DNA from: Halomicronema hongdechloris C2206
GTDB lineage: Bacteria > Cyanobacteriota > Cyanobacteriia > Phormidesmidales > Phormidesmidaceae
Direction: 5' to 3'
Assembly (NCBI RefSeq): GCF_002075285.3
Contig: NZ_CP021983.2
Span: 2,580,001 to 2,612,000 of the forward strand
Length of the DNA stretch: 32,000 nucleotides
Shown: positions 20,721 through 30,491 of the stretch, one piece after another
Layout: the number at the start of each line of letters is the position of its first letter
Numbering within the stretch: the first letter of the stretch is position 1
Made by a program: the position numbers and the translations under genes
Notes under the pieces: model-generated
The model's input: only the letters and a program-made list of their open reading frames with translations
Told to the model about the DNA's origin: nothing
The model's database searches: none

Positions 20721-21245
20721 ATGGTTCATTTTCGTGTGTGCTCACATGGCCTCCAGTGGCCTACGATACCGTTCACCATCGCGGGTTGGATTGCGATCGC
20801 AACCACTGTTAACATCACCCCCTCGGCCGGGGCCAACCAGTATGATACCTGTGCCCGGGACCTGCTCGCTGCCGGAGTCGCCCCCGAAGCCGCCCGCACC
20901 ACCTGTGCCAAGGCCCTCCATCCTACAGAGCTGGCTGACTGCGTTGAGTCTGTGGCTGAGGTGACTGAGGTGGCCCCTGACGAGATTCTATCGGCTTGCT
21001 CTCGGGATCGACGTCCCCAGGACATGGCCAGCTGCGTCAGCGATATCTACACCACCCTGGCGGTGTCTGATGGGCTGAAGGTGCTAGAGAGCTGCCATCG
21101 CAGCATCTTGCCCCGACGCTATAGTGCCTGTGTCACTGGCCTAGCAGATGCCCTAGAGACCAGCACCGATGACGCCCTCAATAGCTGCCTCAGCGCCGGC
21201 TATCGCCCCACCGACCTCGATCCCACCTTCATCCCCGCCGAGTAG
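20721..21245 (+). CDS. hypothetical exported protein with a fourfold Cys-pair repeat
   Basis: 174 aa with an N-terminal hydrophobic segment. Eight Cys are arranged as C-x17-C, C-x18-C, C-x19-C and C-x18-C, separated each time by exactly 11 residues. Confidence 0.5.
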   Translation: MVHFRVCSHGLQWPTIPFTIAGWIAIATTVNITPSAGANQYDTCARDLLAAGVAPEAARTTCAKALHPTELADCVESVAEVTEVAPDEILSACSRDRRPQDMASCVSDIYTTLAVSDGLKVLESCHRSILPRRYSACVTGLADALETSTDDALNSCLSAGYRPTDLDPTFIPAE

Positions 21246-21967: not shown

Positions 21968-22435
21968 TTAAGTTACTTTAACCAGTACCAACTCGCCTTC
22001 AATTTTGGCCTCAAAAGCGTCTAAAGGCTCGGCGGCAGGCCCCTGGCGCACACTGCCATCGGGGTTGAACTGAGATCCATGGCAGGGACAGGCAAAGCCT
22101 TCGGTGCCATCGTCCCACTCCACGTAGCACCCCTGATGGGTGCACAGGGAATTTACCCCCAACACCGCCGTGGCATCGGCAGGATCTCGAACGACCACTA
22201 CTTGGGAGCCGAGAAAATTCTTATCAGAGAGAAAACCGGCCTCATCTAACCCGGCTACAGTCCCCACGGCCGCAAAGCCGTCCGGCCGCGGCGTAGAAGC
22301 TACCTCGACGTCCTCACTGGGGCTCTCCCTAGAACTCGAGGTGGTATCGGCGGACTGACAGGCTGCAATGGCCATGGGCAAGGAGCTCGCTAGACAGCCT
22401 AGTCCTACCCAACTGACAAATTCCCGTCGTTTCAT
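21968..22435 (-). CDS. Small Rieske [2Fe-2S] protein, predicted Tat-exported lipoprotein (PetC3-like)
   Basis: Twin-arginine KRREFV motif followed by lipobox AIAAC. Rieske boxes CTHQGC and CPCHGS. AGGAGA sits 8 nt upstream of the ATG. Lies 16 nt downstream of ccsA. Confidence 0.9.
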   Translation of the reverse strand: MKRREFVSWVGLGCLASSLPMAIAACQSADTTSSSRESPSEDVEVASTPRPDGFAAVGTVAGLDEAGFLSDKNFLGSQVVVVRDPADATAVLGVNSLCTHQGCYVEWDDGTEGFACPCHGSQFNPDGSVRQGPAAEPLDAFEAKIEGELVLVKVT

Positions 22436-22451
22436 AGCGATGTTCTCCTGC

Positions 22452-24158
22452 TCAACGTTCAGCTGGGCTTAACTGCTCAGACGGCCGCCACCCGCTGTAA
22501 TGGCGGGCGGCGGCCATGGCCACAAATAGAAGGTCCAAGCCCACCACGGCCGCAATGATCATCTCGGAACCGCCGGTGCCAAAGCCATAGCTGTGGAGAC
22601 CGGTGCCGAGGACGAAGTTGACGCCATACCAGGCCATGAGGACGGCGTTGAAGGCCACCACGCTGGCAACACCAATGCCGAAGTCGCCAATCCAGCCCAC
22701 CAATCGCCCATGTAGGGGAGCCAGGTAACAGAGCAGGGCAATCAAGGCCCAGGTTTCCTTGGGATCCCAGCCCCAGAAGCGGCCCCAAGAGAAGTGGGCC
22801 CAAATGCCGCCCAATATAATGCCGGTGGTCAACAGCAGGACGCCTACCTGCAAGACGCGATAGTTGAGCTGGGACAGGGTTCTGATCCGTCCTGTTGCCG
22901 TGGGAGTGACGAGGTAATTGCCCAGGGTCAGGTGCCCTAACCCCAGGGCTAAGGCAAAGCTGGCGTAGCTGAGGGCAATGGTGGGCACATGGATGCTGAG
23001 CCAGAAGTTATCCCGCAGCACCGGCACCAGGGGCGTAATGCTGGGATCGAGTACGGCGGGTAGGCTATCGGCCAACACCAAGCTGGTGACTGCCAACGGC
23101 GCCGCTGCCAATAGATAATAGCGGGCGCGAGACATCAGCTCGAAGGTGAGGGCCAGGGCGGCAATGCCGAAGCCGACCCAGACTACTGACTCATACATGT
23201 TGGTCACCGGGGGGCGGCCGGCGATCTGCATCCGCAGCCAGAAGCCGTAGGCCTGAATCCCCAGACCGGCGGTGAAGAGACCGATGGCGCCCCAGTAGAG
23301 ATTCCAGGGCTTTACCCAGAGGCTGATCACCACGGCGATGAAGGCCAGGCCGTAGAGCCACCAGGCTTTGGCGAAGGGATGGAAGTGATTGAAGTGCACC
23401 TCCCGCCTCAAGGCCGCCTCGGCCGGATAAATCTGGGGACTCAGCCGCTGCAGCCCTGCTTTCAAGTCTTGGGCCAGGGGACCCACCATGGGGACATGGG
23501 TGATTCCCCCTTGCAACAGGGTCTGCTGCATCTTCGCAAATACCGCCAGTAAGGGAGTAATGGCTTCGGGGTCGTAGAGTTGCTGGGCCTGGGAGAGGCT
23601 GACCCAGGTGCCCTGGGCATCGCTGGGGTGGGGCACAATCGGGAGGGTATCGCCGCCAACGCTGCCGTAGAGCCGGTTGAGCCGATCTTCGATGGTCAGC
23701 GCCTGCCGCTGGTTACGGCTCAAGTCATCGCCCTTGAGGTCGGCTTGATGGGCCTGACGCACCAGGGTCGCCAGAGCCTGGTTGGCCATCAGCTCTTGAA
23801 AGCTGAAGTGTTTGCGCGCCGGGTCTAGTCCTACGGCTGCTTTCAGGGGGCGATAGCTGACCAGCACGACGGGTTCTTGGTTCCAGTCTCGAGTGTTGAA
23901 CCACAGAGTCAGGTAGGTGCTGAGGTAGTCTTCTGACGCTCCGGCTAGGGGCTGGTAGGTCGTAGAGCCATGGATTTGGGTGACGGTTTCCTTGGCCACG
24001 GTATCTAAGGGCTTTTTGCGGCCATCCAGCTGCACGGCCAAGGTCCGCAGGGAGTCTAAGGTATCGGGCTGGAATTGACTCAGGGGCACCAGGCAGAGCA
24101 GGGTGCCGAGACAGAGGCCCAAACAGAATTTGAGCAAGTTAAAGCCTGTCATGGTCAA
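22452..24158 (-). CDS. ccsA: Cytochrome c biogenesis protein CcsA/ResC (System II haem-handling subunit), long form
   Basis: W-rich haem-handling motif WGRFWGWDPKETWA with conserved His-containing segments (HFNHFH, SIHVPT, GLHSYG). An extra region of about 250 aa lies between TM1 and the core. Start is TTG at 24158 or ATG at 24152. Confidence 0.9.
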   Translation of the reverse strand: MTMTGFNLLKFCLGLCLGTLLCLVPLSQFQPDTLDSLRTLAVQLDGRKKPLDTVAKETVTQIHGSTTYQPLAGASEDYLSTYLTLWFNTRDWNQEPVVLVSYRPLKAAVGLDPARKHFSFQELMANQALATLVRQAHQADLKGDDLSRNQRQALTIEDRLNRLYGSVGGDTLPIVPHPSDAQGTWVSLSQAQQLYDPEAITPLLAVFAKMQQTLLQGGITHVPMVGPLAQDLKAGLQRLSPQIYPAEAALRREVHFNHFHPFAKAWWLYGLAFIAVVISLWVKPWNLYWGAIGLFTAGLGIQAYGFWLRMQIAGRPPVTNMYESVVWVGFGIAALALTFELMSRARYYLLAAAPLAVTSLVLADSLPAVLDPSITPLVPVLRDNFWLSIHVPTIALSYASFALALGLGHLTLGNYLVTPTATGRIRTLSQLNYRVLQVGVLLLTTGIILGGIWAHFSWGRFWGWDPKETWALIALLCYLAPLHGRLVGWIGDFGIGVASVVAFNAVLMAWYGVNFVLGTGLHSYGFGTGGSEMIIAAVVGLDLLFVAMAAARHYSGWRPSEQLSPAER

Positions 24159-24166
24159 TGGAGGGA

Positions 24167-25633
24167 TTAGGGGTGGACAGTCTCAGGAATCGAGTCGGGT
24201 TGGGTGTCGTCACTGGCAGGCGCTGGGGGCTGGGGCGATGGCTGGCGACGGCGCAGACGCTTTGCGATCGCAGGTCCGTAGAACATGACGCCGATGCCCA
24301 GCACCACCAACAGGGAGCCGCTCCAGGTCAGAGCAGTGACCCACCAGGGCTCTCGCTTCAGTTGCAGGGTGGACTGGTTTAAATCCCCCGGATTCCAGGA
24401 GGCCTGGGCCAACTTCCAGCCGCGAAACCAAGTGGGATGGTTCATCCACACCGAGCGCTGCACCGCCGTGTCCGTATGGGGATCCCAGAGGGTGATCTGG
24501 CTGGTCCACATGGCCACCGACTCGCTACCTTCGTTGCGCGCCACGATGAAGTCATCCAGCGTCACATAGAAGGGCAACTGCAACAGCTTGGGACCAAAGG
24601 CGGCCACCTGGAGGCCATCCTGGCCTTGCCAGGAGACGGGCTCCCCCCAGGGCAGCCAGAGAGTGGAGCCATCCTGGCGAGATACCTGGAGGGCCGGGAA
24701 GCTCTCCCCTGGGGCAGCAGCCCCGGCAGTCAAGGGCACTACCCGGCGTTGCACCCGGGCCCGATCGATGCGATCGCTGAGGGAGATCTGGATATCGGCC
24801 CAGCCCGGGGCAATGACCTCACCGGGACGCCATTCACCGACGGTGGTGCCCTGGGCCCCATGGGCCCCATAGAATAACCGCTGGTCTGGGGCAGCGACCA
24901 CGCGCAGGAGGTTTGGGGCCTTGGCATCGGTGAGATCCAGGAGTCGCGCCAGCTCGGCCTCATCCTCGGCCTGCACCAGCTCCAAGTGGGCCGGGCCGAT
25001 GTCCAGCTGCCGATAGTCGCCGGGGGCCATGGCCAGCCAGCGTCTCAGGGTTTGCCCCATGCGATCGCTGCCCATGGTCAGCTGTATGGCCAAGTTGTCG
25101 ACGTTGCCACCTGGCTGGAAGCCGACAGTGGTCACGGCCTGGTCGCTGTAGCCCTGCAGGAAGAGGCCGGCAAAATGTTGGGGACTGACGGAGCCATCGG
25201 GCCGGATCACCACATCGGCAGCCCGGGTCGCCTGGCCAGGAGCCGCCACCTGCAGCTGCTCGCCCTCCACCCGAATCTGATTATTGGGGCCGCCATCGGT
25301 GCGCAGCAACAGCATGCCTTCGCTGCTGAGGTGAATTACCGCGGCAGCGCCGGCAATGAGAAGGATTAATCCCCAATGGGTGAGGGCGAAGCCAATTTTT
25401 CGCGGTCCTCGCCAGGGGTAGCGACTGAGGGTTGATACTCCCAGATTCACTGCCAGGAGAAACACTAATGCCCCAAACCAGGCACTTTTATAAATCTCTC
25501 TCTGAACCGTTGCAGAGCCGACATTAGACTCATAAACGGTGGCCCAAATCAGAATAGTTGCGATCGCAACCAACAGGGGTACAGCCAGACGAATTGAGCC
25601 CAGAAATCGGGTAAATCTGGATGCCATAATCAT
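24167..25633 (-). CDS. ccsB: Cytochrome c biogenesis protein CcsB/ResB (System II)
   Basis: 488 aa with ResB-like architecture: N-terminal TM helices, a large soluble domain and a C-terminal TM helix (WWVTALTWSGSLLVVLGIGVMFY). Directly upstream of ccsA. Confidence 0.85.
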   Translation of the reverse strand: MIMASRFTRFLGSIRLAVPLLVAIATILIWATVYESNVGSATVQREIYKSAWFGALVFLLAVNLGVSTLSRYPWRGPRKIGFALTHWGLILLIAGAAAVIHLSSEGMLLLRTDGGPNNQIRVEGEQLQVAAPGQATRAADVVIRPDGSVSPQHFAGLFLQGYSDQAVTTVGFQPGGNVDNLAIQLTMGSDRMGQTLRRWLAMAPGDYRQLDIGPAHLELVQAEDEAELARLLDLTDAKAPNLLRVVAAPDQRLFYGAHGAQGTTVGEWRPGEVIAPGWADIQISLSDRIDRARVQRRVVPLTAGAAAPGESFPALQVSRQDGSTLWLPWGEPVSWQGQDGLQVAAFGPKLLQLPFYVTLDDFIVARNEGSESVAMWTSQITLWDPHTDTAVQRSVWMNHPTWFRGWKLAQASWNPGDLNQSTLQLKREPWWVTALTWSGSLLVVLGIGVMFYGPAIAKRLRRRQPSPQPPAPASDDTQPDSIPETVHP

Positions 25634-25928
25634 CGCAATTTTGATCGAAGTCCACGTGTATACCTGTCAGGTTTAGCCGGGAAAGTTTGTATCCATTGAT
25701 GCAAAACCGATGACTTATATGCGGAAACCGTTTAAATTCGATTCCATCAGTGCATATTGAGCCTGTGTTGGCCTGATGGCAGCGTTCATGTTAGTTATGC
25801 ATCAGTTCCATGCAGCCGCTGAATATTAAATCAGAAATCGTAGTTGATTTAACAAAAATAAGCTGGGGAGTTGCCTATTTTCGAATACACACCACGACAC
25901 TCCCAATAACGTTAGAGATTGGACTGTA

Positions 25929-25954
25929 AAGATGACATGCCAAGATGACATGCC
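25929..25954. repeat. Perfect tandem duplication of the 13-mer AAGATGACATGCC
   Basis: Direct reading. The 10-mer AAGATGACAT recurs a third time at 26148-26157, spanning the globin start codon. Confidence 0.9.
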
Positions 25955-26150
25955 GTCGCCATCAGCGTTTGCAGCATTGATGATATCCGTCTTTGATCTT
26001 CTGACTTCTGATCAGATTTGGTGACGAGATTTACATCCCAGTGATGTTGCATCATGGGTCATCACCGGTCGAAATTTACAGCCTTTATTGCAGTTTATTA
26101 GGTGGCTCCTGGAGAACGTTTTGGGTTCATGATTTAGGAGATTCTTCAAG

Positions 26151-26717
26151 ATGACATCGAACGTGAATGCGGCTTCCCAAGAAACTGCCCTTCAAATTGA
26201 GCTTTTGGAGCAAAGTTTTGCGAAGGTAAAACCCCAGGCCAATGAATTTGTGGCCAGTTTCTATGACAATCTATTCACCGACTATCCGGCGGCCAAGCCC
26301 CTGTTTGCCCACACCAATATGGCAGAGCAAGGCCAGAAACTACTGATGTCCCTGGTCTTTGTGATCGAAAACCTGCGTCAACCAGGGGAACTCACTGCTG
26401 CTCTGCAGGGCCTAGGCGCTCGCCACGTCAAATACGGGGCGCTCCCCGAGCACTATCCCCTGGTGGGCAACTCCCTGCTGAAGACCTTTGAGCAGTACCT
26501 TGGGGCCGACTGGACCCCCGATACCAAGGCGGCCTGGGTCGATGCCTATGGCCTGATCACCGAGGTGATGCTAGAGGGGGCCGACTATGATGCGGCGGCG
26601 GTCAACCTCGACTCTAAACCGGTCGATGTCCCTGAGAGCAATATCAAATCCGGTACGGTCGCCAGCCTGATTGGGGGCGGCATTGTGGTGCTGGCCATCC
26701 TGTTCTTCTTGATTTAG
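26151..26717 (+). CDS. Single-domain 3/3 globin (VHb/flavohaemoglobin-type) with a C-terminal transmembrane anchor
   Basis: FYDNLFTDYPAAKPLF, LGARHVKYG (proximal His), HYPLVGNSLLKTFEQYLG and AWVDAYGLITEVML align by eye to Vitreoscilla Hb/Hmp globin domains. No signal peptide. The C-terminal 20 residues (ASLIGGGIVVLAILFFLI) are hydrophobic. AGGAG sits 10 nt upstream of the ATG. Confidence 0.9.
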   Translation: MTSNVNAASQETALQIELLEQSFAKVKPQANEFVASFYDNLFTDYPAAKPLFAHTNMAEQGQKLLMSLVFVIENLRQPGELTAALQGLGARHVKYGALPEHYPLVGNSLLKTFEQYLGADWTPDTKAAWVDAYGLITEVMLEGADYDAAAVNLDSKPVDVPESNIKSGTVASLIGGGIVVLAILFFLI

Positions 26718-26760
26718 TCCCTGCCAGTTTCTGGTTTGCCCCGCCTCTGAGGAGATATCG

Positions 26761-27408
26761 ATGATCTGGCCTGGAGGTCGATCCATTCCCTGGCAATCCA
26801 TAGTGAGCCTCAAGGGTGCGATCGCATGTGCCTGTATTGCCCTAATTGGCTGGTTCGCCGCCGCCTTCTGGCTGGATCAGCGCCAGGTGTTCTTGCCCGG
26901 CCAAACCTCCGTCGGCCACCACTTGTTTGAGACCTCCTGTAATTCTTGCCACGAAGGCTTTAAGCCGGTCAGCAACGACACCTGCAGGCGCTGCCACCAG
27001 GCCGAACTGGCCGAAGATGCCCACGGCACCCAGAAGTTTATGGACCCCCGCTGGGCCGAGGACTTAGAAAAGTTGGCCGTCCTCACCTGCACCACCTGCC
27101 ACAACGAACATGTGCACATGTTTGACCGCGGGGTACATCTACAGCCGGACCTGTGTATGACCTGCCACGACGGCATCATCACCGGCGAGCTCAAAAGCCA
27201 TGACGGGTTCACCCCCGACGGCTGTTGGACCGCGGGTTGTCACAACTTCCACGACCACCGCTCGATTTCCACCGGGTTTTTGCGCCAAAACCTGGATCAA
27301 CCGCCGATGCTACCGGTACAAGCCCTGCCGGAGCGTACCGTCTCCCCGTCCCTGGAGACAGCCCCCAGGCCTGACCTGACCTCGGAATTTGAGGAGTTGG
27401 GGCGATGA
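26761..27408 (+). CDS. Membrane-anchored pentahaem cytochrome c (4 CXXCH + 1 CX4CH)
   Basis: N-terminal TM helix (aa ~17-37). Haem motifs CNSCH, CRRCH, CTTCH, CMTCH and CWTAGCH, with many extra His for bis-His ligation. GAGGAG lies upstream. The stop overlaps the next ATG (ATGA). Confidence 0.85.
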   Translation: MIWPGGRSIPWQSIVSLKGAIACACIALIGWFAAAFWLDQRQVFLPGQTSVGHHLFETSCNSCHEGFKPVSNDTCRRCHQAELAEDAHGTQKFMDPRWAEDLEKLAVLTCTTCHNEHVHMFDRGVHLQPDLCMTCHDGIITGELKSHDGFTPDGCWTAGCHNFHDHRSISTGFLRQNLDQPPMLPVQALPERTVSPSLETAPRPDLTSEFEELGR

Positions 27409-28201
27409 AACCCTGGATTGCCATGGTGCTGGCCCTGTTACTCATGCTGGTCTACCCGGCCCCCGCCGGGGGAGAGGGAGTCACCTCAGAGGCGGTTGAG
27501 GAGGCCACTCAACTCTGGCAAGAGAGCCTCCATGCGCTGAATCAGGTGAATTGCTCCAGCTGCCATCAGCCCGCAGCCACCCGGCCCCTGCAGGGGCACC
27601 CCGACCATGAGAGTTGTCGCAGCTGTCACAAACAGGCGGTAGAGACCTTCCTGCTGGGGAAACACGGGGTGCGGCTATTGGAAGGTCAATCTCCCCTGAC
27701 CCCGGCCATGGCTCGCCTGCCCATGAAGGCGGCGGCCCACCAGCGGCAGATGACCTGTGCTACCTGCCACGATGTGCACTCCGTCAATACCGTCGCGGCG
27801 GCGGTGGATGCCTGCCTCAGTTGCCACAATGATGCCCATTCCTTGAACTATGAAAACTCTAAACATGCCCAGCTATTCGCCGCCGATCGCCAACTGCCTC
27901 GACCGTCAGCAACGGCGGTCAGCTGTGCCACCTGCCACCTACCCCGCCACCAGGTTAAGGCCGGAGAAGGCACCCTGACCCAGGTCAACCACAACAACAA
28001 CACCTATACCCTCTTACCTCGCGATCGCATGGTGAAAGAAGTCTGCATGGGCTGCCACACGGCCTGGAATACGGCTACAACAGCATTTTTGATGACGACC
28101 TGGTGGAGGCCAATTTTGATCACCCTCCCAGTTCGTCCCTAGAGACCTTTGAGCTGGTTCGGGCCCTAGAAGAACGGCGCACCGATCAAGCCGGTCCCTA
28201 G
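27405..28201 (+). CDS. Secreted hexahaem cytochrome c, with an apparent -1 frameshift at 28059-28061 (track ORF ends at 28142)
   Basis: Signal peptide, then six CXXCH motifs (CSSCH, CRSCH, CATCH, CLSCH, CATCH, CMGCH). After CMGCH the annotated frame gives TAWNTATTAFLMTTWWRPILITLPVRP*. The +1 frame gives GLEYGYNSIFDDDLVEANFDHPPSSSLETFELVRALEERRTDQAGP*, ending at 28201. Confidence 0.8.
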
Positions 28202-28307
28202 GCTCTGATCCCATCAACGTTCGCGGAGAAGACTGTCCTCACCCACCCATTTGTTCATTCCTGACTCACATTTAACTGCACGTCTTAGCGATAAGGAGAG
28301 GAGTTCC

Positions 28308-28958
28308 ATGGCATTCGTCGAGAGATGGTTCCAGACAATTCGCACCCGCACCGTTGCCTTCGTTGCCATTGTGATGGCGGTGATGGTCACGGCGGTATCC
28401 TGTAGCGGCGGTGGCAATGTCGCCGACAATGCCGGGGTGGCCCCGGAACTGGTGGCCGATTATATTCACACGGTGTTGGCGGCAGACCGTACCGCCTATA
28501 CCAAGCACGTAGTCAACCGAGTCGCGACCCTGGAAGGGAAGGCGAAGGAGGATGGTGTGTTGCCCATCGAAGCCACCGAAGGCTGGCAACAGACCGACGG
28601 CATTCCCCTACCGGCCCAGATGTTCCGCCTGGGATCGGAAATTGCCAACGAATCCGGCTACTTTACCTACAACCTGATTTCGCCCTGGTATATCAACGAC
28701 AACCATGCTCCCAAGGGGGAGTTTGAAGAGCGGGCGGTACAGGAAATGATCGACACCGGCGAGCCGGTGAAGGAATACCAAGAGATTGGAGACCAGACCT
28801 ATTTCTCGGCCATGTACCCCGACAAGGCGGTGGCGGAAGCCTGTGTCTCTTGCCACAATACCCACCCGGTTCACCTGGAACGGTACCCTGACAAGCAATT
28901 TGTCATGGATGAGGTCATGGGCGGCATCGTGATCAACATTCCCCTGCAGGGTGCTTAG
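28308..28958 (+). CDS. DUF3365/Tll0287-like c-type haem lipoprotein
   Basis: Strong SD (AAGGAGAGGAG) before the ATG at 28308. Signal with lipobox AVSC. A single C-terminal CVSCH haem site in the context typical of DUF3365 (…NHAPKGEFEERAVQEM…EACVSCHNTHP). Confidence 0.8.
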   Translation: MAFVERWFQTIRTRTVAFVAIVMAVMVTAVSCSGGGNVADNAGVAPELVADYIHTVLAADRTAYTKHVVNRVATLEGKAKEDGVLPIEATEGWQQTDGIPLPAQMFRLGSEIANESGYFTYNLISPWYINDNHAPKGEFEERAVQEMIDTGEPVKEYQEIGDQTYFSAMYPDKAVAEACVSCHNTHPVHLERYPDKQFVMDEVMGGIVINIPLQGA

Positions 28959-29085
28959 CAGGGTCGGCTCCCCTAGGGGGCGACGCCGATGCTGAACCAG
29001 CGCTGGGAGAGGTTAGCCGGAGCAGAGCCGCCCATTGCCCACCGCCCAGCTTGCCCACTGACGAGACTGTCCTAGGTCTAAAGCT

Positions 29086-29838
29086 ATGAGTAGACGCCAT
29101 CCCCATCCTGGCGGCCCCGGGGCTCACCGAGCGCCGTCCACCCATCTCGATCTATCGGCGGGCAATCGAGATCCCGCCGCGGTTCCGATTCCGAATCCGG
29201 CAGCCATTGCTGCCCAGCGGCGCTTTCCCCGGCGGGCGCCACAGTTGCAACCGGGGTTTAAAGCCCTGATTGGCCTCACCCTATTGATGGCCCTGCTGTT
29301 GTTGCCCTTTGCCTTCAGTGCCGAGTATTTGGCCCTGCTGCGGCAAAATTCCGTGGACTTGCATCGCTTCTTGCGGGGAGAGGCCTACAAGCAGGCCACT
29401 GGCTACGGCGCCCTCAGCCTGGTGATACTGGAGCTACTGCTGACGGTGCGCAAGCGTAGCCGCAGTTGGATTGGCCGGATTAAATTGCCAGGATCGATGC
29501 AGGTCTGGCGCAGTGTCCATATCTTTCTGGGGGTGGCCCTGGTGGGGATGGTGCTAATCCACACCATTGGCGCCACCGGAATGAATTTTAATGCCGTTTT
29601 CCTCTGGGTGTTTTTTGCCTCGGTGCTGACGGCCCTGGTGGGGGTGGTGGCAGAAACCGGCATCCTGGAGTCGACCCGCCGTTATTTTGGTCGCTTGCCA
29701 GGCAGCAATACCGTGCTCACGAAGGGTCCCCTAGTGCGAGGCTTACGGGCACTTTGGTTAACCAGCCATATCTTCTTTGTCTGTGTCTTCGGGGTGATGC
29801 TGGTGTGCCACATCATCCTGGCCTACTACTACCAGTGA
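29086..29838 (+). CDS. Polytopic membrane protein with two HX13H helices (putative di-haem cytochrome b-like electron conduit)
   Basis: About 5 predicted TM helices. SVHIFLGVALVGMVLIHT and TSHIFFVCVFGVMLVCHI each place two His 14 residues apart within a TM helix. The Pro/Arg-rich N-terminal 55 aa makes the start uncertain. Confidence 0.6.
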   Translation: MSRRHPHPGGPGAHRAPSTHLDLSAGNRDPAAVPIPNPAAIAAQRRFPRRAPQLQPGFKALIGLTLLMALLLLPFAFSAEYLALLRQNSVDLHRFLRGEAYKQATGYGALSLVILELLLTVRKRSRSWIGRIKLPGSMQVWRSVHIFLGVALVGMVLIHTIGATGMNFNAVFLWVFFASVLTALVGVVAETGILESTRRYFGRLPGSNTVLTKGPLVRGLRALWLTSHIFFVCVFGVMLVCHIILAYYYQ

Positions 29839-29868
29839 TGATGACGCTACAGCCATGAGGTGACCCCA

Positions 29869-30348
29869 ATGACGGTCAATCCGCTACTCGATGCCCTCAA
29901 GCGACGATTCTCTCCCCTGATTCCCTTGGTGATCATCGGGGTGTTTGCGATCGCAACCCTCTGGCTCACCCGGCCAGCAGGATCTGCCCCAGGCCCCTCG
30001 CTAGTCTCGGGGCTGATGACCCTGAAGGCGACGGCCCAAGCGGCCACGCCCTACGACGCGGCCATGGCCAATGGCAAGCCCACCCTGCTGGAGTTCTATG
30101 CCGACTGGTGCACCACCTGTCAGGCCATGGCCCCCACCCTGCAGGCCCTCCATCACCAGTTTGGCCACCAGGTGAACCTAGTCATGCTGAATATAGACGA
30201 TCCCCAATGGCAGCAGCCCCTCGAGCGGTTTCAAGTTAAGGGGGTCCCCCACCTGGTGTTGCTGCAGGCCGACGGCACCGTTGCCGATAGCGTCACGGGC
30301 AAAGTTCCCCGGTCCATCCTGAGCCATCGCCTGGGTGATCTCCTCTGA
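29869..30348 (+). CDS. Membrane-anchored thioredoxin-like protein (TxlA/ResA/CcsX-like)
   Basis: N-terminal TM helix followed by EFYADWCTTCQAMAP (WCxxC active site). I chose the ATG at 29869, which has GAGG 8 nt upstream, over the GTG at 29860. Confidence 0.85.
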   Translation: MTVNPLLDALKRRFSPLIPLVIIGVFAIATLWLTRPAGSAPGPSLVSGLMTLKATAQAATPYDAAMANGKPTLLEFYADWCTTCQAMAPTLQALHHQFGHQVNLVMLNIDDPQWQQPLERFQVKGVPHLVLLQADGTVADSVTGKVPRSILSHRLGDLL

Positions 30349-30491
30349 GACCATCTGCCATGGCTATGCTGCAGCGGCTGCTCCAGTTCTTAGACTTCCA
30401 GCCACCGAATTTGTGCCGATTGTTTGCTGCCTCCGAGCAACCGGGTCGGGGTGGCATTAACCTGATGCGATCGCAAGCCCCAAGCGTTGCC

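Follow-up and report, generated by a model that had tools for sequence, protein, structure and literature searches.

We examined a window of 32,000 nucleotides (nt) from Halomicronema hongdechloris C2206, a chlorophyll-f cyanobacterium (contig NZ_CP021983.2, positions 2,580,001 to 2,612,000 of the forward strand), in which an island of nine genes at window positions 21968–30348 encodes a set of haem and redox proteins. Six of the genes lie on the plus strand and encode, in order, a globin of 188 amino acids (aa; 26151..26717), a pentahaem cytochrome c, hereafter c5 (26761..27408), a hexahaem cytochrome c, hereafter c6 (open reading frame [ORF] 27405-28142, with a conserved C-terminus that can be followed to 28201), a Tll0287-like haem-c lipoprotein (28251..28958, its probable start being the ATG at 28308), a 250-aa membrane protein with five predicted transmembrane helices and two invariant HX13H pairs (29086..29838), and a membrane-anchored periplasmic thioredoxin with the motif WCTTC (29860..30348). 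The other three form a minus-strand operon of ccsB (24167..25633; 488 aa), ccsA (22452..24158; 568 aa), and, as its last gene, a periplasmic Rieske [2Fe-2S] lipoprotein (21968..22435), and a candidate NtcA-type class II promoter on the plus strand (25840..25881) lies between the two gene sets. Scored against Pfam gathering scores and NCBIfam cut-offs, the window proteins match Rieske, Cytochrom_C_asm (CcsA), ResB (CcsB), Globin, Cytochrom_c3_2 (c5 and c6, both also recognized by their haem motifs), the Tll0287-like family (PF11845) and Thioredoxin above the gathering score, and none of the nine island proteins reaches an NCBIfam equivalog cut-off for a housekeeping function. The original prediction for this stretch, made from its letters alone, had assigned domains to nine ORFs, all of which the ORF list and Pfam place at these coordinates. 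Its twelve c-haem sites in three adjacent ORFs were counted correctly (5+6+1 = 12), one of them being CX4CH and not CXXCH, and the ATGA overlap of the c5 and c6 genes lies at 27405-27408; the other gaps, which it gave as 30-127 nt, are actually 21-127 nt. With 12 c-haems, 2 predicted b-haems and the globin haem, the haem inventory of the island comes to 15, plus one Fe-S cluster.

Relatives of c6 were collected by a pattern scan with one genome per species, and our synteny counts refer to the best 80 of the 193 species-level genomes found in this way. These best 80 are all cyanobacteria, and the carriers include Leptolyngbyaceae, Elainellaceae, Nodosilinea, Geitlerinema, Lyngbya confervoides, and Coleofasciculus as well as Spirulina, Xenococcaceae, Prochlorothrix, Limnothrix, Symploca, and Caldora. 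The original prediction had considered a penta- plus hexahaem set unexpected in a cyanobacterium; with relatives of c6 in 193 species-level genomes the cluster is by no means unique, and the module occurs outside the cyanobacteria as well. In tblastn searches of the 80 loci, the window globin was matched in 77, c5 in 79, c6 in 80, the Tll0287-like protein in 79, the membrane protein in 75, and the thioredoxin, directly after the membrane protein, in 70; ccsB was matched in 54, ccsA in 50, and the Rieske gene in 43, the shortfall being mostly a matter of contig ends. The order from globin to thioredoxin (globin, c5, c6, Tll0287-like, membrane protein, thioredoxin) is nearly always kept, in 70-80 of the 80 loci. 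The maturation operon is usually divergent and upstream, has moved to a co-directional position upstream in L030 and L033 (loci are cited by our own numbers) and to a downstream position in L059, L073, and L080, and always reads ccsB-ccsA-Rieske. The genes that flank the island in the window are not conserved with it, except in the closest relative. Chance juxtaposition, for which the original prediction had proposed a gene-neighbourhood comparison, is thus refuted: the order is kept, ccsB-ccsA-Rieske stays linked through rearrangement, and the flanks differ. Linkage that survives rearrangement is strong evidence for a functional unit. Two other genes are recurrent downstream of the thioredoxin gene in cyanobacterial loci and absent from the window, namely a ChaN-like haem-binding lipoprotein (PF04187) in 22 loci, for example L001:14048-14926, and a pentapeptide-repeat protein in 45.

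The two multihaem cytochromes are strongly conserved in their haem-binding residues. The c5 protein is anchored by an N-terminal transmembrane helix and contains four CXXCH motifs and a fifth site of the form CX4CH (CWTAGCH), a pattern that recurs in the same order in 80/80 cyanobacterial homologues. The c6 protein is secreted, its ORF is 100% identical to XM38_024480, and 79 homologues in the cyanobacterial set have six CXXCH motifs. Sequence alignments further show at least five invariant non-motif histidines in c5 (H53, H88, H117, H147, and H164) and six in c6 (H43, H87, H125, H145, H154, and H196), such that 11 are available for 11 haems, and there is no CXXCK. Because of these 11 extra histidines every haem in c5 and c6 can be bis-His, and therefore none looks catalytic. 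We predict from this pattern that all 11 haems of the c5-c6 wire are bis-His electron carriers rather than catalysts, which agrees with the absence of a catalytic cytochrome noted in the original prediction.

An exhaustive profile search returned 390 cluster representatives, and the majority of the distant ones are proteins of 400-480 aa in which c5 and c6 are fused into one undecahaem cytochrome. In sets of 34 and 48 fused sequences, the 11 motifs, CX4CH included, and the 11 extra histidines are invariant or nearly so. The sources include Haloferula helveola, Opitutaceae and other Verrucomicrobiota, Methylomirabilota, and many uncultured bacteria; at L081:10001-12496 the undecahaem protein is fused to an MFS-like N-terminal domain. 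A structural model of the undecahaem protein has a pLDDT of 74, with the hexahaem half at ~85-90 and the pentahaem half at ~50-58 (low confidence), and its Foldseek matches are weak, to the Ignicoccus octahaem protein 4qo5 (E 0.04, prob 0.99, TM-score 0.26) and to NrfA/TvNiR. With the Kuenenia HAO-like protein 6h5l the c6 profile aligns over no more than four haems (E 5.5e-8), and the cytochromes also give a weak match to Pfam Cytochrome_C554. Based on the weak octahaem fold match and the four-haem match to 6h5l, the c5-c6 wire is a remote, non-catalytic relative of the NrfA/HAO/c554 superfamily. It differs from these proteins in having no CXXCK, a conserved histidine available as sixth ligand for each haem, and about half their size. 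Other multihaem families fit less well. No Cytochrom_NNT-type tetrahaem match of the NapC/NirT/NrfH kind was found for c5 in Pfam or NCBIfam; with regard to Mtr/Pcc conduits, TIGR03508 (DmsE/MtrA-type) gave 39 bits against a cut-off of 192, and no porin-like ORF is conserved in the 80 cyanobacterial loci. The undecahaem OccP of 'Ca. Dechloromonas occultata', with its 922 aa, is not the same protein.

The membrane protein is the likely link between this wire and the cytoplasm. Across 76 homologues, in which the first ~55 residues are not conserved, exactly four histidines are invariant, H145/H159 on one helix and H228/H242 on another, as the original prediction of two HX13H helices had it. From this pattern we predict a di-haem b transmembrane electron carrier. 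Two His pairs on two transmembrane helices, 13 residues apart, are also found in the NOX/ferric-reductase flavocytochromes b and in MsrQ, and their task, transmembrane electron movement, is the one predicted for the island protein as well. However, the island protein has five predicted helices rather than six, and its Pfam scores are all below threshold (Ni_hydr_CYTB, prokaryotic cytochrome b561, 17.5 vs 30.1 bits; DUF4405, 17.1 vs 26.7 bits). Its AlphaFold model (pLDDT 78.5) has five long helices, and Foldseek comparison with the PDB found no significant match (best E 1.5; cytochrome b561, TM-score 0.39), be it to NOX, DUOX, STEAP, MsrQ, or cytochrome b561. Membership in the FRD or b561 families was rejected on this ground. 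Because there is neither a fold nor a Pfam family match, the case for haem b binding rests on the His pattern together with two kinds of fusion. One is P0192, a protein of 386 aa with an N-terminal globin followed by the membrane domain, encoded on three independent contigs of one cyanobacterial lineage and followed by the thioredoxin gene; this fusion puts the globin on the cytoplasmic side of the membrane and fixes an inside position for the N-terminus of the membrane protein.

The other kind of fusion comes from a partner survey of 84 non-cyanobacterial loci with a GC content of 35-72%. In 74/84 the membrane domain forms the C-terminal part of a 660-870-aa NAD(P)H flavoprotein (hereafter flavo-b), the N-terminal part of which contains either Pyr_redox_2 and Fer2_BFD or cNMP-binding, Fer2_BFD, FAD_binding_6, and NAD_binding_1 domains; in L094:723-3323 two cyclic-nucleotide-binding domains precede the flavo-b protein and the module is FNR-like. 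Read from its domains, this predicted layout is NOX-type logic, leading from NAD(P)H through flavin, [2Fe-2S], and two b-haems to periplasmic c-haems. As in NOX and the ferric reductases, the membrane domain is joined to an NAD(P)H/FAD module in the cytoplasm, but the module here is NirB-like with a BFD [2Fe-2S] domain, sits N-terminally rather than C-terminally, and has a multihaem cytochrome as its acceptor. The trans-membrane wire of the original prediction is supported by the four invariant histidines on two helices, by the natural globin-membrane-protein fusion, and by this flavoprotein fusion in other phyla.

Partners of the undecahaem cytochrome in the 84 loci are the Tll0287-like protein (72-79 loci), the membrane domain (51 by tblastn, 74 by clustering), and a soluble globin of 140 aa (32-35). 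An operon of flavo-b, undecahaem, Tll0287-like, and globin genes is found in Haloferula helveola and many metagenome loci. In a minority (L081, L082, L085, and L122) the membrane protein stands alone and the gene order, undecahaem-Tll-membrane, is that of the cyanobacteria; in a neighbour-joining tree these four are the nearest neighbours of a monophyletic cyanobacterial clade. In L159 (2726-3118) and 15 further loci outside the cyanobacteria, the Tll0287-like gene and the globin gene flank a gene for a small class I monohaem cytochrome c lipoprotein, which may take the place of the cyanobacterial Rieske protein as a high-potential link.

The window globin is a single-domain, flavohaemoglobin-like 3/3 globin with no signal peptide and with a C-terminal transmembrane helix. 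It scores 70.7 bits with PF00042 (E 2e-19), and its NCBIfam match is a flavohaemoprotein N-terminal domain. The reductase domain of flavohaemoglobin (Hmp) is not part of it, as PRK13289 is covered over model positions 7-135 only, at 72 vs 432 bits. Its best relatives in the PDB are the Methylacidiphilum 'Hell's Gate' globins 3s1i/3ubc (E 1e-25), followed by flavohaemoglobins, the Vitreoscilla haemoglobin VHb, and Campylobacter Cgb. Aligned to 3s1i, the residues FY (B10), Q (E7), and RH (F8) are in register, and the B10/E7 assignment, which comes from that alignment, suggests a TyrB10/GlnE7 globin closest to the bacterial NO-handling globins. In 55/78 cyanobacterial loci a tandem di-globin with the same C-terminal helix is found, and 65/78 have a hydrophobic tail. 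The single-domain form is a trait of the Halomicronema lineage, and a search for remnants of a first globin domain upstream of the window globin gene found none.

Two lines of evidence connect the module with nitrogen metabolism. First, nitrate-assimilation genes lie beside it in 21/42 non-cyanobacterial loci of at least 9 kb. These neighbours comprise a NasT-like ANTAR response regulator directly upstream, NrtA, NrtB, and ATPase transporter genes (NrtABC-type), and a molybdopterin nitrate reductase. Siroheme nitrite/sulfite reductase (NIR_SIR) genes are also present in 5 loci; the co-occurrence of a siroheme nitrite reductase indicates that the module is accessory, and the idea that it replaces the assimilatory nitrite reductase is weakened accordingly. 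L083 and L084 have a different context of Rrf2, NnrS, NorW-like, and cbb3 oxidase genes.

The second line is the promoter. We compared 48 divergent intergenic regions with 300 dinucleotide-preserving shuffles and with control palindromes of the same composition. The NtcA-type palindrome GTAN8TAC is present in 25/48 regions as against 3.0±1.6 in shuffles (maximum 10 in 300), and the control palindromes are found 2-10 times. The full arrangement GTAN8TAC-N21-23-TAN3T is present on the globin-operon strand in 14/48 regions, compared with 0.23±0.46 in shuffles, and only once toward ccsB. In the leader alignment this NtcA-type promoter is the sole conserved block of the globin leader. The window copy, GTAGTTGATTTAAC-N22-TATTTT, differs from GTAN8TAC at a single position and is found 269 nt upstream of the globin ATG. 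An Rfam search of the long 5' leader was negative, and a scan for consensus sigma-70 promoters and terminators returned chance level. The leader of the window copy also contains a perfect tandem 13-mer, AAGATGACATGCC x2 (25929-25954), that resembles cAAGATGACATcg around the globin start codon (~26148) and is not conserved in other loci.

Taken together, NtcA and NasT, two unrelated regulatory systems, apparently tie homologous modules to nitrogen assimilation. The closest functional precedent that we found is the experimentally characterized narK-bjgb-flp-nasC system of Bradyrhizobium, which is NasT-controlled and in which NO arising from nitrate assimilation is removed by a single-domain globin together with an NAD(P)H flavoprotein (PMC4724949). 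The non-cyanobacterial relatives share with it a single-domain, flavohaemoglobin-like globin, an NAD(P)H flavoprotein, and nitrate clusters next to NasT-type ANTAR regulators, and the cyanobacterial version shares nitrogen-regulated expression, as predicted from the promoter motif. In contrast, the flavoprotein here is fused to a di-haem membrane domain or, in cyanobacteria, absent, and Bradyrhizobium lacks the 11 periplasmic c-haems, the Cache-haem protein, and the membrane-tethered globin (cyanobacterial) found here.

The Tll0287-like protein is the third c-type cytochrome of the island, with 69.6 bits for PF11845 against a gathering score of 24.1. It has the haem motif CVSCH, and its only cysteines are the lipobox residue C51, which is conserved, and C198 and C201. 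Conservation of the CXXCH amounts to 97% among cyanobacteria and is complete in a mixed alignment, and 52/73 non-cyanobacterial homologues likewise have no non-motif cysteine. Similarity to Tll0287 of Thermosynechococcus itself (5B82) is marginal (E 0.29 with a profile), and phmmer found no match in the PDB. The two share the PF11845 match, the conserved CXXCH, and a periplasmic location (sCache_haem), but without a spare cysteine the island protein cannot have the His/Cys ligation of Tll0287, and it is a lipoprotein encoded in a cytochrome operon rather than a photosystem II-associated or signalling protein. Since the cysteine ligand is missing, its haem is a candidate ligand-binding haem on the evidence of the alignment. 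The DUF3365 family has been reclassified as haem-c Cache domains, some of which bind NO, the stand-alone ones appearing to be of redox type (2026 preprint, PMC12889525).

Covalent attachment of these 12 haems would be served by the island's own maturation genes. CcsA (PF01578, 106 bits vs 29.9, E 3e-30) has a ~270-aa N-terminal extension and the WWD motif WGRFWGWDPKETW, and it does not reach the cut-off of the NCBIfam equivalog TIGR03144 for the housekeeping CcsB (153.4 bits vs 187.6); judged by these scores, it is a divergent long form and not the housekeeping orthologue. It is 60-78% identical over its full length in 50 cyanobacterial loci. The ccsB gene (PF05140, 53 bits vs 24.6) lies 8 nt upstream of ccsA, and the pair is kept in 50-54 loci. 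In the window, CcsB is a short form in which ~115 aa of the periplasmic loop are missing relative to homologues of ~603 aa (tblastn with CcsB from L009 and L045), and the close relatives L166 and L167 also have a short form, of 494 aa. The anchored thioredoxin (Pfam E 2e-17; NCBIfam matches of DsbE/ResA/TlpA type below cut-off) is likely the thiol reductant for the CXXCH motifs of the apocytochromes. The synteny supports the original prediction of a module with its own System II genes and indicates that the set co-evolves. The term self-contained, used there, is overstated in that neither an electron donor nor CcdA is encoded. The CX4CH motif was considered as the reason for a dedicated lyase, and this explanation is weakened: relatives keep the motif and have a linked lyase in only 1/84 loci, and motif specificity is thus less likely. 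It seems more likely that the cyanobacterial housekeeping system is limited with multihaem periplasmic substrates. A comparable case is Wolinella with its dedicated System II lyases, NrfI for CXXCK and CcsA1 for CX15CH: in the island, too, an extra CcsA/CcsB set lies beside special cytochromes that it presumably serves, one motif being non-standard (CX4CH). The island has separate CcsA and CcsB proteins and not a CcsBA fusion.

The Rieske protein encoded at the end of this operon has a Tat signal (KRREF), a lipobox (AIAAC), and the cluster motifs CTHQGC...CPCHGSQF (Pfam E 1e-11), and its RR motif and lipobox cysteine are conserved across a set of 42 homologues. The b6f subunits of the PetC1/PetC2 kind do not include it, as it scores 68 vs 250 bits with NCBIfam PetC and has a Tat signal and lipobox instead of a helix anchor. 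The best solved relatives are the Chlorobaculum Rieske protein (ISP) 8hn2 and Synechocystis PetC3 (5CXM, E 6e-16; both ~1e-16). PetC3 is likewise a small Rieske domain with Tat signal and lipobox and no b6f subunit, whereas the gene of the island protein comes third in a dedicated ccsB-ccsA operon with linkage to a multihaem cluster; such a cluster is not known from Synechocystis, the organism in which PetC3 was studied. A few kb downstream of the cluster of an uncultured Leptolyngbya (L002:13651-14718), a 355-aa protein joins an N-terminal His-rich multi-helix (ferric-reductase-like) domain to a C-terminal Rieske domain.

The window copy shows two apparent lesions relative to its closest relative, L166, which has the same flanks and proteins 81-90% identical. 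The c6 gene contains a 2-bp insertion at ~28057-28060, just after the sixth CXXCH (TGC CAC AC GGC vs TGC CAT GGC in L166), and the conserved 45-residue C-terminus (GLEYGYNSIFDDDLVEANFD...) is readable in the +3 frame to a stop at 28199-28201. The gene after the thioredoxin gene, which encodes an intact 72-aa hydrophobic protein in 46 cyanobacterial loci (e.g. L166:12913-13131), is reduced to a stub in the window, where only its first ~13 codons (MAMLQRLLQFLDF) are still similar (30360-30400). These observations raise the question of whether the island is impaired or silent in C2206, having lost the C-terminus of c6 to a frameshift that the intact relative does not have and the small downstream gene to truncation. 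We consider this improbable. All six CXXCH motifs of c6 lie upstream of the frameshift, the remaining genes are all intact, with 81-90% identity to their counterparts in L166, and the extra 2 bp may have arisen in the assembly by error. Decay was also considered for the single globin and the short CcsB, and this was rejected because both are shared with L166/L167 and are thus lineage traits. The window c6 gene also has a 3-bp in-frame insertion that adds an asparagine (NHNNN). The locus tags did not turn up in the supplementary data of the published H. hongdechloris proteome. The remaining window genes are of housekeeping type (oligopeptide ABC transporter, Era, FtsH, GltX, GroEL, MtnA, DXS, an RRM protein, a rhomboid protein, and an S24 peptidase). 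Between dxs and the RRM gene lies a gene for a 174-aa secreted hypothetical protein with cysteines and no Pfam match (20721-21245), a homologue of which is found at the same place in L166 (3358-3882).

We hypothesize that the nine genes form one functional island that would build and mature a haem chain across the plasma membrane. Signal peptides, the Tat signal, lipoboxes, transmembrane anchors, and the globin fusion show or strongly indicate its parts list and predicted compartments. NtcA would turn the operon on during growth on nitrate or nitrite or under nitrogen limitation, and ccsB, ccsA, and the anchored thioredoxin would attach the 12 c-haems. A cytoplasmic globin of NO-dioxygenase type would be tethered by its C-terminal helix, in line with its fusion to the cytoplasmic face of the b-protein in one lineage, and at the periplasmic face the anchored c5 and the soluble c6 would carry electrons. 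Between them, the b-protein would hold two haems and pass electrons between a cytoplasmic partner, a flavoprotein elsewhere and the globin here, and the c-haems. The globin and the Cache haem would be the ligand-handling ends, and the chain would keep the globin, and probably also the Cache haem, reduced for the removal of NO and N-oxides that come from nitrate and nitrite assimilation. In most bacteria the chain would be fed by NAD(P)H through the flavoprotein fused to the b-domain, with an outward flow. MsrQ is a transmembrane di-haem b protein fed by quinol, and by this analogy the cyanobacterial chain, having lost the flavoprotein domain, would most likely receive its electrons from the membrane quinol pool by way of the b-protein. 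At the periplasmic end, the connection to high-potential carriers in the plasma membrane would be made by the PetC3-like Rieske protein. This model is weakest in the role that it gives to that protein and in the direction of electron flow.

A nitrogen-regulated transmembrane haem chain serving NO/N-oxide detoxification is the reading that we favor, tentatively and with somewhat less than even confidence. The original prediction had listed NO/O2 detoxification with periplasmic electrons among its candidates. NO detoxification is the best supported of these, given the type of globin, the NasT/nas context, and the NtcA-type promoter; the periplasmic electrons are unsupported and thermodynamically doubtful, and we do not adopt that version because inward flow from Rieske to globin would oppose both the redox gradient and the membrane potential. 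Several points weigh against the detoxification chain as a whole. The NtcA site of the window is imperfect (GTAN8AAC), the hexahaem gene is frameshifted in the C2206 assembly, and the membrane protein has neither a solved-fold match nor an above-threshold Pfam family. No electron donor is encoded in the window or in the other 80 cyanobacterial loci, in none of which a flavoprotein homologue was found within ±10 kb. A Rieske centre is expected to be too oxidizing to feed bis-His haems, and a wire of 11 haems seems excessive for reducing one globin. The globin is present in only 35/84 non-cyanobacterial loci, such that the conserved core can do without it and may have its main task in the periplasm. 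Finally, what the model says of expression, haem content, and phenotype is itself inferred from sequence. A bolder version, which we regard as doubtful, holds that the island encodes an undescribed membrane redox complex in which the globin would be hard-wired through the di-haem b protein to the 11-haem periplasmic wire, acting as a membrane-integrated NO dioxygenase or NO oxidoreductase that would exchange electrons with the periplasm and the respiratory chain instead of with a soluble flavoprotein.

The same architecture could also serve the export of electrons. In 74/84 relatives, the fusion of an NAD(P)H flavoprotein with the di-haem b domain reproduces the layout of NOX and the ferric reductases, and outward flow is, by established bioenergetics, the thermodynamically easy direction. 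The island might then be a NOX-like valve or respiratory branch through which cytoplasmic or quinol electrons would pass via the b-haems and the 11-haem wire to Fe(III) in reductive iron uptake, to O2, or to minerals in dark anoxic mats, with the Rieske protein as a high-potential exit and the globin as an O2/NO gate or side branch. Eleven haems are enough to span the periplasm, as a comparison with the decahaem MtrA suggests, Alginate_exp-type outer-membrane barrels adjoin the module in L082 and L092, the ChaN-like haem/iron-binding lipoprotein follows the cluster in 22 cyanobacterial loci, and the carriers are mostly benthic, mat, or stromatolite cyanobacteria. However, the cyanobacterial cluster has no porin or outer-membrane cytochrome, the DmsE/Mtr-type scores fall well short of the cut-off (39 vs 192 bits), the core is not accompanied by conserved genes of Fur type or related to iron, and a role in iron uptake or overflow does not predict nitrogen-linked regulation or a nas context. 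We consider export unlikely.

Location inside nas operons counts in favor of a further proposal, in which the haem c of the Tll0287-like protein would itself be catalytic on nitrite, NO, or hydroxylamine as a periplasmic N-oxide reductase, fed by the b-haems and the undecahaem wire, and the globin would only mop up cytoplasmic NO. The flavoprotein module is of NirB type (Pyr_redox_2 + Fer2_BFD), c6 is remotely related to HAO, NrfA, and the octahaem proteins (6h5l, E 5.5e-8; 4qo5, prob 0.99 but TM-score 0.26), and the Tll0287-like subfamily combines the missing cysteine ligand with Arg, Tyr, His, Asp, and Glu residues that are invariant. We know of no Cache-haem protein that is catalytic, and the conserved M124, H205, and H208 of the Tll0287-like protein could make the haem six-coordinate. 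Related Cache_haem domains bind NO, yet the stand-alone Cache-haem proteins were described as being of redox type with limited ligand exchange (PMC12889525), and the siroheme nitrite reductases in 5 loci again argue that the module is no replacement for them. On balance we judge a periplasmic reductase to be quite unlikely. Sensing of redox state or NO, in which the Cache haem and the globin would be sensors and the haem chain would do no more than relay redox state across the membrane to a signalling partner, is highly improbable: DUF3365/Cache_haem domains are mostly input domains of kinases, chemoreceptors, and cyclases (PMC12889525), and GGDEF and histidine-kinase genes are found near some non-cyanobacterial loci, but no output domain is fused to or conserved beside the nine genes in the 80 cyanobacterial loci, 12 covalent haems with dedicated maturation would be costly for a sensor, and the NAD(P)H-flavoprotein fusion implies a sustained electron flux.

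Each part of the detoxification chain that we favor belongs to a known family, and transmembrane haem relays are a known kind of system. What is new is the combination of a globin, a di-haem b protein, an undecahaem wire, and a Cache haem, its nitrogen-linked regulation, and the private haem lyase in oxygenic phototrophs. We found no published description of this cluster, although subscription journals were sparsely covered and such an absence is no proof. Textbook cyanobacterial electron transport includes monohaem c-type cytochromes only. The island is a concrete candidate for the route by which cyanobacterial electrons cross the plasma membrane, as in biophotovoltaic current and reductive iron uptake, with 2 b-haems, 12 c-haems, a globin, a Rieske protein, and its own maturation genes in ~190 species. 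If the globin were indeed hard-wired to the c-haems, many mat-forming cyanobacteria would own a genuine trans-plasma-membrane multihaem conduit of the kind that has been sought for exoelectrogenesis and reductive iron uptake. The island also provides a natural example of an oxygenic phototroph with a second System II haem lyase that is dedicated to particular substrates. The core, in its version with the fused NAD(P)H flavoprotein and a place in nitrate-assimilation operons, is widespread and unannotated in Verrucomicrobiota, Methylomirabilota, and many uncultured bacteria, and a function established in one organism would thus annotate hundreds of genomes. The island may also show how cells deal with NO from nitrate assimilation on both sides of the membrane.

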